Part shown: positions 33,386 to 33,820 of the stretch, piece by piece
Numbering within the stretch: the first letter of the stretch is position 1
Layout of the letters: the number at the start of each line of letters is the position of its first letter
Sequence record: PP934564.1
Source of the DNA: Klebsiella phage RothD
Length of the DNA stretch: 46,356 nt
Direction: 5' to 3' (one strand)
Notes under the pieces: model-generated
What the model was told of the DNA's origin: nothing
Seen by the model: the letters and a program-made list of their open reading frames with translations, nothing else
Database searches by the model: none
Program-made: the position numbers and the translations under genes

Positions 33386-33820
33386 TTATTTTTGCAGGGA
33401 TTTTATTGCGGAAAGGGTAAGCATAGAAGGGGGAAGGCTGCGAAGGTTATAAATGTAAGTCATATAGCACCCGCAATCCCTTGGAAGCGGTATATCATTA
33501 AGAAATCCATCAACTCCGGGCTTTATCAATTTTTTCTTTATCGCCCATGATCCCTTAATTGTATAGATCCTCCCCTCTCGTTCTGCATGCTCTTTGCAGC
33601 CCCTTGATTTCCATACAGCCGCAAGGGCATTGTTATCAACTGCATAACTGTGATCAGCCGCATTAAGTAGCGTTTTCGCATTTTTAACCGAAGAGCCTAT
33701 TCTAACTGGTTGATACTGTTTTAAATTCTTTTTTGTGGACTGTTTTTTATGCCAAATAAAAACGAACAGGCAACACGTAACCGCTAAGAATGCCCCAAGC
33801 AAAAAAGAGAAAAAACTCAT
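33386..33820 (-). CDS. membrane-anchored protein co-transcribed with cI; C-terminal domain paralogous to the head-morphogenesis (Mu-F-like) protein C-terminus; candidate superinfection-exclusion/immunity moron
   Basis: 144-aa; N-terminal TM (FFSFLLGAFLAVTCCLFVFIW); C-terminal RIYTIKGSWAIKKKLIKPGVDGFLNDIPLPRDCGCYMTYIYNLRSLPPSMLT aligns with 3954-4784 product KLVYLIRRNWAQKNGYVKAGPAGYLDEITQPGEEVFCRCYVTYLYNLRSIPEGMLT; ~40% GC; 20 nt after cI stop, followed by terminator; rexAB position. Confidence 0.55.
   Translation of the reverse strand: MSFFSFLLGAFLAVTCCLFVFIWHKKQSTKKNLKQYQPVRIGSSVKNAKTLLNAADHSYAVDNNALAAVWKSRGCKEHAEREGRIYTIKGSWAIKKKLIKPGVDGFLNDIPLPRDCGCYMTYIYNLRSLPPSMLTLSAIKSLQK

Follow-up and report, generated by a model that had tools for sequence, protein, structure and literature searches.

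A MuF-core protein with a predicted membrane anchor is encoded behind the cI repressor of Klebsiella phage RothD and related prophages

The sequence record of Klebsiella phage RothD (PP934564.1), analysed here over its full stretch of 46,356 nt (the window), contains a small gene in its immunity region, which we call orf144. It occupies positions 33386-33820 of the minus strand (435 bp including the stop codon, ATG start) and was listed as an open reading frame (ORF) of 144 aa. We found that orf144 is a real gene under selection, that it follows cI as the final cistron of a two-gene operon, and that the redeployment of a MuF core domain in this operon has been maintained in evolution. The product is composed of a predicted N-terminal transmembrane (TM) anchor, a basic linker and a MuF-core domain. 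Judged by homology, it is a truncated and re-targeted member of the MuF superfamily that falls outside the contextual definition of the family, which is that of a virion component encoded after the portal gene. What appears to be new is that an accessory gene of the immunity region has been built from a domain of a virion protein. The initial annotation of the gene had already read it as a structural-protein domain turned into a membrane protein of the prophage. The analysis supported such a reuse within the cI operon, and the arrangement is kept across loci.

Results

Homology of orf144 to the MuF-like head protein

The window encodes a MuF-like minor head protein of 276 aa at 3954-4784 on the plus strand, and its domain homologous to orf144 covers approximately residues 154-276. 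The gene lies directly 3' of the portal gene (2542-3957, plus strand; Pfam Phage_portal_3/DUF1073, 3.4e-18), and its start overlaps the portal stop, which is the canonical muf position. The portal protein is the expected partner of MuF-type proteins. The 276-aa protein matched phrog_324 ‘head morphogenesis’ at 6.4e-30, and its match to Pfam Phage_Mu_F was weak, with 11.9 bits (cutoff 29.6) over residues 155-248.

In BLASTP, residues 45-143 of the orf144 protein were aligned with residues 163-271 of the MuF protein at 37% identity and 55% positives over 109 aa (E=2e-21). The match is longer and stronger than the C-terminal similarity of about 65 aa that had been noticed at first. The shared segment overlaps the PF04233 region, which indicates that it is not an appended C-terminal domain. 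The similarity between the two genes had been described as low at the DNA level, and indeed one 41-nt stretch of 76% was all that was detected.

The Pfam scan of the orf144 protein gave no family at E<=1. Among the 24 members of the subfamily, five reached PF04233, the best with 1.3e-4. With a limit of E<=1e-3, a profile of the small family matched 265 proteins among 1.84 billion representatives. Of the 150 matches listed, most were MuF-type proteins whose domain begins around residue 140-170; these were short MuFs (250-330 aa) or longer proteins extended at the C-terminus. The rest were short fragments. The exact architecture of orf144 was present in only three clusters among the listed matches. 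With the full-length MuF protein as query, all homologues among the best 120 listed were at least 94% identical.

W70, H78, C116 and C118 (numbering of the 144-aa protein) were invariant when 24 sequences from the small family and MuF proteins were aligned. The canonical MuF of phage GZ7 likewise ends with H...CxC, and the C-terminal motif Y(I/L)YNLRS(L/I)P..MLT is common to the small family and MuF. A metal site at C75/H78/C116/C118 may be hypothesized, although MuF proteins do not retain the fourth ligand of this candidate zinc site.

Predicted fold of the domain

Residues 40-144 of the orf144 protein were modelled by AlphaFold2 with a predicted local distance difference test score (pLDDT) of 93.8, from an alignment that mixed the small family and MuF. 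The model of the whole 276-aa MuF protein had a pLDDT of 94.1 and a predicted template modelling score (pTM) of 0.87. The element order H-E-H-E-H-E-H (H, helix; E, strand) is common to the orf144 domain and to the MuF model from helix 154-180 on (residues 154-275). Residues 1-152 of MuF are all-helical in the model and have no counterpart in the orf144 protein.

A Foldseek comparison had been recommended together with the initial annotation. The matches in BFVD were dominated by MuF, minor capsid and head-morphogenesis proteins with probabilities of up to 0.98, but their E values were only 0.01-1. The fold of the orf144 domain had no neighbour in the PDB, and it did not qualify as the BECR-like fold (PBECR/BECR RNase) that has been proposed for the C-terminal domain of Mu gp30 (Iyer 2017). 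Taken together, the sequence matches and models show the orf144 domain to be a divergent branch of the MuF core domain, with a fold that lacks a solved representative.

Membrane anchor and topology

The protein has one hydrophobic, predicted TM helix at the N-terminus (residues about 4-23, encoded at 33752-33811 on the minus strand), with a Kyte-Doolittle maximum of 2.57 over the 19 aa of residues 4-22. This corresponds to the single TM helix that had been described before, and it is hydrophobic in every family member despite sequence variation. It is followed by the juxtamembrane stretch HKKQSTKKNLKQYQPVR, which belongs to a basic linker (residues 24-40; 33701-33751, minus strand) with six K/R and no D/E residues. 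The K-rich stretch is kept across the family. Moreover, the N-terminus carries no positive charge, being MSF in the window protein and MD(I/F) in most relatives. Under the positive-inside rule, this pattern would correspond to an N-out/C-in signal anchor, which would leave the remaining 100 residues in the cytoplasm. We predict that the orf144 product is a single-pass inner-membrane protein with a periplasmic N-terminus and a cytoplasmic MuF-core domain (residues 41-144; 33389-33700, minus strand), the latter containing W70, H78, C116 and C118.

Organization of the cI operon

The window represents a temperate phage or prophage of Klebsiella of the lambdoid type. In the immunity region it is 98% identical to phages GZ7, RCIP0034 and RCIP0098, and in the structural module it is 93.6% identical to phage vB_Kpn_Chronis. 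The first gene of the operon encodes the cI repressor (33840-34535, minus strand; 231 aa; Pfam HTH_3 1e-8 and Peptidase_S24 1e-14). As stated in the initial annotation, orf144 follows cI closely on the same strand, and the gap was re-derived as 19 nt (33821-33839) instead of 20 nt. This spacer contains a Shine-Dalgarno (SD)-like AAGG at 33831-33834, 10 nt 5' of the ATG, and has no room for a separate promoter. The operon is closed by an intrinsic terminator at 33342-33369 on the minus strand, which begins 17 nt past the orf144 stop and is made of an 8-bp stem with five GC pairs (hairpin 33369-33350) and a T8 tract. The terminator has a folding energy of -13.2 kcal/mol, with z = -2.7 relative to shuffled sequences.

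Putative operators were found on both sides of the operon. OR-like operators and a PR-like promoter are located at 34561-34628, between cI and cro (34638-34859, plus strand). The OL/PL-like region (33211-33275, minus strand) contains leftward sigma-70-like promoters and the palindrome TACAA-N6-TTGTA at 33218-33239, and this repeat is also present twice within 34561-34628 in the cI-cro intergenic region. Operators on both sides together with the terminator give the order OR/PR - cI - orf144 - terminator - OL/PL. The slot between cI and OL/PL is the rexAB position in lambda, where the cI-adjacent slot houses exclusion genes, and the rexAB/sieB-type position assigned to the gene at the outset agrees with this order. 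The TACAA-N6-TTGTA elements common to OL and OR are operator candidates, and they appear to define the immunity specificity of this cI lineage. A perfect 12-nt inverted repeat (33216-33227/33248-33259) was also observed on the OL side. In addition, the PL-like promoter is closely followed by several very small hydrophobic ORFs (32888-33160, minus strand; about 41-59 aa each), and their homologues in GZ7 are annotated as ‘membrane protein’ and ‘cell division inhibitor’. No structured RNA was found in or around orf144 with Rfam at E<=0.1.

The GC content of orf144 was 0.405, with 0.386 at third codon positions (GC3), compared to 0.557 (GC3 0.711) in the head gene at 3954-4784 and 0.531 in the window, so the low GC of the gene was confirmed. 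The GC content of cI was 0.466 in the window and 0.45-0.47 for cI generally, and all orf144 alleles were within 0.39-0.42. The low GC belongs to the whole cI cassette, orf144 included. It had been proposed that the domain was captured from an AT-rich phage. This origin was not upheld, since the nearest MuF is that of the window's own subfamily and the low GC is common to cI and all alleles. As the synonymous sites are saturated, the event is old and the source of the orf144 domain is no longer readable.

Conservation and distribution of the family

Word-based and exhaustive searches gave a family of ten 90%-identity clusters, reaching down to 51% identity. The length is constant at 144 aa with the exception of one variant with a different N-terminus, and 49 columns are invariant. 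The hosts are Klebsiella spp., Raoultella, Kluyvera and Escherichia coli. All members are annotated as ‘hypothetical protein’, as is the exact orf144 protein in NCBI (e.g., WP_219715529.1).

A survey for cI-adjacent homologues in related prophages had been suggested as a check, and its outcome was uniform. A cI gene 88-100% identical to that of the window was located 17-22 nt upstream in 22 of 22 loci, counting the further loci with the 144-aa form beyond the window. SD-like motifs were present in all homologous loci. Furthermore, the GCCCG...CGGGC hairpin with T8 after the gene was kept in divergent alleles, with changes in both stem and loop. The loci belong to lambdoid prophages whose replication modules varied (O/DnaC-type, lambda-P-type and DnaB-type), and so did the early-left and recombination genes.

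Nonsynonymous divergence (pN) among the orf144 alleles was 0.21-0.31 compared to a synonymous divergence (pS) of 0.61-0.85. The pN of cI was 0.03-0.09, so that of orf144 amounted to 3-8 times the value in the adjacent gene, and pS was saturated in both genes (0.6-0.9). Saturated pS with pN below pS indicates that the cI-orf144 pair is old and that orf144 is under purifying selection, evolving several-fold faster than cI. Faster protein evolution than in cI would be expected for a conflict gene.

Two more distant clusters, P0132 and P0133, have the architecture of orf144. The P0133-type gene (locus L009, 156 aa) is located 21 nt after a 135-aa repressor with HTH_3 and Phage_CI_repr and no S24 domain, and this repressor is divergent from a P22_Cro gene. 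For P0132, no genomic context was found in viral or metagenome scans. In a neighbour-joining (NJ) tree of the domain, the 144-aa family was monophyletic in 48 of 50 bootstraps, and the group including P0132 and P0133 was recovered in 34 of 50. By mean distance, the nearest sequence outside the small family was the window's own MuF.

Relation to the resident head module

The association of orf144 with a window-type head module is facultative. None of the five GenBank phages that carry the small gene has a window-type MuF. Alleles of 98% identity are present in GZ7-type phages, and the post-portal protein of GZ7 is a canonical Phage_Mu_F (3.7e-12) for which BLAST gave no connection with the small protein. 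Chronis represents the opposite case, with a window-type head module and no gene between its repressor and the PL-side genes. The Chronis repressor itself is different, a 264-aa helix-turn-helix protein (L112 3258-4052), and Chronis and the window form a natural pair differing in the cassette.

Both elements were found together in other genomes. Klebsiella aerogenes LDBK01000067 carries a 51%-identical allele and a 95%-identical MuF about 15 kb away, and E. coli 914033 also has the small gene with a window-type MuF. By intersection of contig names, a window-type MuF is present on at least 5 of the 11 long IMG/VR contigs that carry the small gene. A same-type head module accompanies the small gene in at least eight prophages. 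This facultative co-occurrence indicates that cassette and head module are inherited independently, and that the cassette tolerates heads of the most similar subfamily. The gene had been called a paralog of the phage's own head protein. The homology to the window's MuF was confirmed, but the association with a resident head of this type is facultative, as seen in the GZ7-type carriers and the empty slot of Chronis.

Further features of the head module were observed. A counterpart of the portal with the same size and position, in a RefSeq E. coli prophage (L107 33840-35255), is named ‘anti-CBASS protein Acb1 family protein’, which looks like an error of automated naming and not like a biological signal. 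The next gene after MuF, at 4797-6410 (plus strand), encodes a 537-aa fusion of an N-terminal NUDIX hydrolase (2.9e-16), DUF2213 and a long Lys/Glu/Ala-rich segment. The NUDIX-DUF2213 fusion is conserved in Chronis and PdC23 and in prophages of K. aerogenes and E. coli. It is unusual for an enzyme domain to be joined to the apparent scaffold or protease slot of a head module.

Other MuF cores with hydrophobic N-termini

Unrelated hydrophobic N-termini were found on other MuF-core proteins, namely P0165 (232 aa, one TM helix) and P0214 (224 aa, multi-helix), and P0166 has a MuF core with a signal-peptide-like N-terminus. The P0165 and P0214 genes were located on other viral or metagenomic contigs. 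The P0165 gene (L010 5001-5699) is part of an accessory island on the plus strand, with tail genes of the minus strand on either side; it comes after a HicB-like/HTH_3 regulator and is flanked by two genes for secreted-looking proteins. The P0214 gene (L108 1619-2293) adjoins a Sel1-repeat gene opposite a DUF3987 replication module. Neither of the two is preceded by a portal gene. P0214 and P0166 were placed outside the cI-linked clade of the NJ tree, which did not include P0165. The location of P0165 and P0214 outside head modules and the tree placement suggest that membrane tethering of the MuF core probably arose more than once.

Discussion

Proposed function of orf144

The sequence evidence suggests that orf144 probably plays a role in some kind of phage-phage conflict. 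More specifically, we propose tentatively, and at slightly below even confidence, that it may be a lysogen-expressed phage-exclusion factor that acts through mimicry of MuF. In this proposal, the lysogen would make a membrane-anchored MuF-core protein from the cI operon. The lysine-rich linker would hold the 100-aa domain at the cytoplasmic face, with the anchor in place of the N-terminal 150-residue helical half of MuF. The tethered domain would then compete for, or trap, whatever the incoming MuF/DNA/portal complex engages at the cytoplasmic membrane, and DNA delivery or the first steps thereafter would be blocked. A block at entry would spare the prophage's own lytic cycle, which fits the coexistence with heads of the same type.

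In SPP1, the MuF protein gp7 binds the portal strongly, and a few copies are carried into the procapsid (PMC6316719). It is dispensable for assembly but required for infection to begin efficiently, as virions without gp7 are infectious in only about 25% of cases (PMC6316719). About 35% of tailed phages have a MuF protein, muf is nearly always single and placed after the portal gene, and beyond this no function has been assigned to the MuF domain (PMC5576092). It has been proposed that effectors enter the cell together with MuF (PMC5512222).

Several points weigh against exclusion by MuF mimicry. In the literature, the entry of MuF into the cell with the DNA is a hypothesis only, and the tethered half of MuF may lack the relevant portal/DNA interface. 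From the operon layout, orf144 would be transcribed with cI and its product made in the lysogen, but a consensus scan gave no PRM-like promoter. No defence or exclusion family in PADLOC, Pfam or NCBIfam was matched by the orf144 protein, and PHROGs returned nothing useful. Furthermore, the family is rare, with 3 of 5,426 complete E. coli genomes and one locus among the GTDB species representatives, and the slot is empty in Chronis, which has the same type of head.

Alternative explanations

A lysogeny function that is not directed at phages appears unlikely, yet it is the alternative that survives best. The protein would serve in conversion of the host membrane or envelope, or in the tuning of prophage maintenance or induction, with the MuF fold as a generic, possibly metal-binding, module. 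Such a function would agree with the strict coupling of the gene to one cI lineage and not to any structural module, with the missing match to defence families, and with an invariant H/C/C set that may bind a metal or serve in catalysis. No biochemical function has been established for the MuF domain (PMC5576092), which leaves room for such a role. However, the L009 architecture behind a different repressor and the independent TM-MuF fusions in accessory islands suggest that the MuF domain itself is selected, and the known partners of MuF proteins are phage components only. The faster protein evolution relative to cI is also more typical of conflict genes.

An abortive-infection sensor seems less probable still. 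Here the tethered domain would recognise the portal or MuF that an invading phage makes late in infection, the 12-fold portal ring would cluster the TM helices, and the depolarised or permeabilised membrane would kill the cell before progeny release. The protein is just a TM helix with a binding-type domain, it evolves fast relative to cI, and its gene sits in a slot like that of RexAB, the membrane-acting abortive system of lambda. Strong binding of MuF-type proteins to portal oligomers (PMC6316719) would suit such a sensor as well. Nevertheless, at least eight carriers have a portal and MuF of the same subfamily of their own, so induction would mean suicide unless self were excluded. Moreover, the single TM helix is variable and shows no conserved pore-lining pattern, and PADLOC gave no similarity to known TM effectors.

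In a dominant-negative assembly decoy, one of two options raised with the initial annotation, the domain would sequester the portal of heteroimmune superinfecting relatives and give procapsids without functional portals. The homology to a portal-binding minor head protein, and the Y(I/L)YNLRS(L/I)P..MLT motif kept in both the small family and MuF, would be consistent with a decoy. Its repeated coexistence with the most similar head subfamily makes this mechanism improbable, as the resident phage would be poisoned after induction. In addition, SPP1 is assembled without need for gp7, so that competing with MuF alone would cost an invader little, and the gene occurs just as readily in phages whose canonical MuF shows no BLAST similarity to the small protein. 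Coexistence with same-type heads argues against interference with assembly in general, and interference with DNA delivery or an early step is more coherent with it. Between the two, we favour a block at entry or shortly after, because same-type heads coexist with the gene and a block at entry would spare the induced resident phage.

That orf144 is a functionless artefact or a decaying fragment of a duplicated head gene, as its short, AT-rich sequence and its bare ‘hypothetical protein’ annotation might suggest, has negligible likelihood and is effectively refuted by the conservation data, which include the 144-aa length fixed down to 51% identity, the 49 invariant columns, pN below a saturated pS, the conserved SD and terminator, and the occurrence in prophages of Klebsiella, Raoultella, Kluyvera and E. 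coli.

Comparison with known systems

The closest relatives of orf144 by descent are the MuF/SPP1 gp7 proteins (PF04233, PHROG 324), with which it shares a homologous core, the same predicted element order and the W...H...CxC signature. It differs from them in the loss of the N-terminal helical half of about 150 residues, which is replaced by a TM anchor, and it lies below all Pfam thresholds. It is encoded in the cI operon instead of after the portal gene, and lysogenic rather than late expression would be expected.

In its genetic setting, orf144 resembles rexA/rexB of lambda and sieB of P22, which are repressor-adjacent or co-transcribed, terminator-bounded, AT-rich, membrane-associated and dispensable for the phage. 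Unlike the two-component RexAB, orf144 would be a single small protein with a virion-derived domain, and the Pfam scan at E<=1 gave no family match. T4 Imm and HK97 gp15 are membrane-bound superinfection-exclusion proteins that block DNA entry. They are similar to orf144 as small inner-membrane proteins of a resident phage, and in the proposed action at genome delivery that would spare the phage's own lytic cycle. However, homology to them would not be expected, they are not recognisable copies of virion components, and the mechanism of orf144 is purely inferred.

The MuF polymorphic toxins consist of a full MuF region in the head module with a C-terminal toxin and an immunity gene (Jamet et al. 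2017, PMC5576092). They provide a parallel in which temperate phages reuse the MuF module for conflict functions. In contrast to them, orf144 keeps the core domain only and is part of the lysogeny module. Just 4-8 residues remain after the MuF core motif, and the terminator follows directly, which leaves neither a toxin domain nor an immunity gene. Full-text searches for literature combining MuF with superinfection exclusion gave nothing relevant, and no prior description of the orf144 system was found.

Implications for MuF proteins and phage exclusion

Temperate phages might repeatedly have cut out the MuF core of their own minor head protein and tethered it on the cytoplasmic side under lysogenic control, as a mimicry defence that traps or senses the portal/MuF/DNA-end complex of invaders; we regard this generalization as possible but doubtful. 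The long retention of a free-standing tethered MuF core in a repressor operon suggests that the domain alone has a selectable activity in the uninfected lysogen. Even if orf144 proved inert against phages, it would be the first documented exception found to the rules that a phage has one muf and that muf follows the portal gene. If exclusion is true, orf144 would represent a new class of exclusion protein, in which the defence protein is a copy of a virion part. Escape mutants would then give the first genetic handle on the partner and role of MuF during genome delivery.

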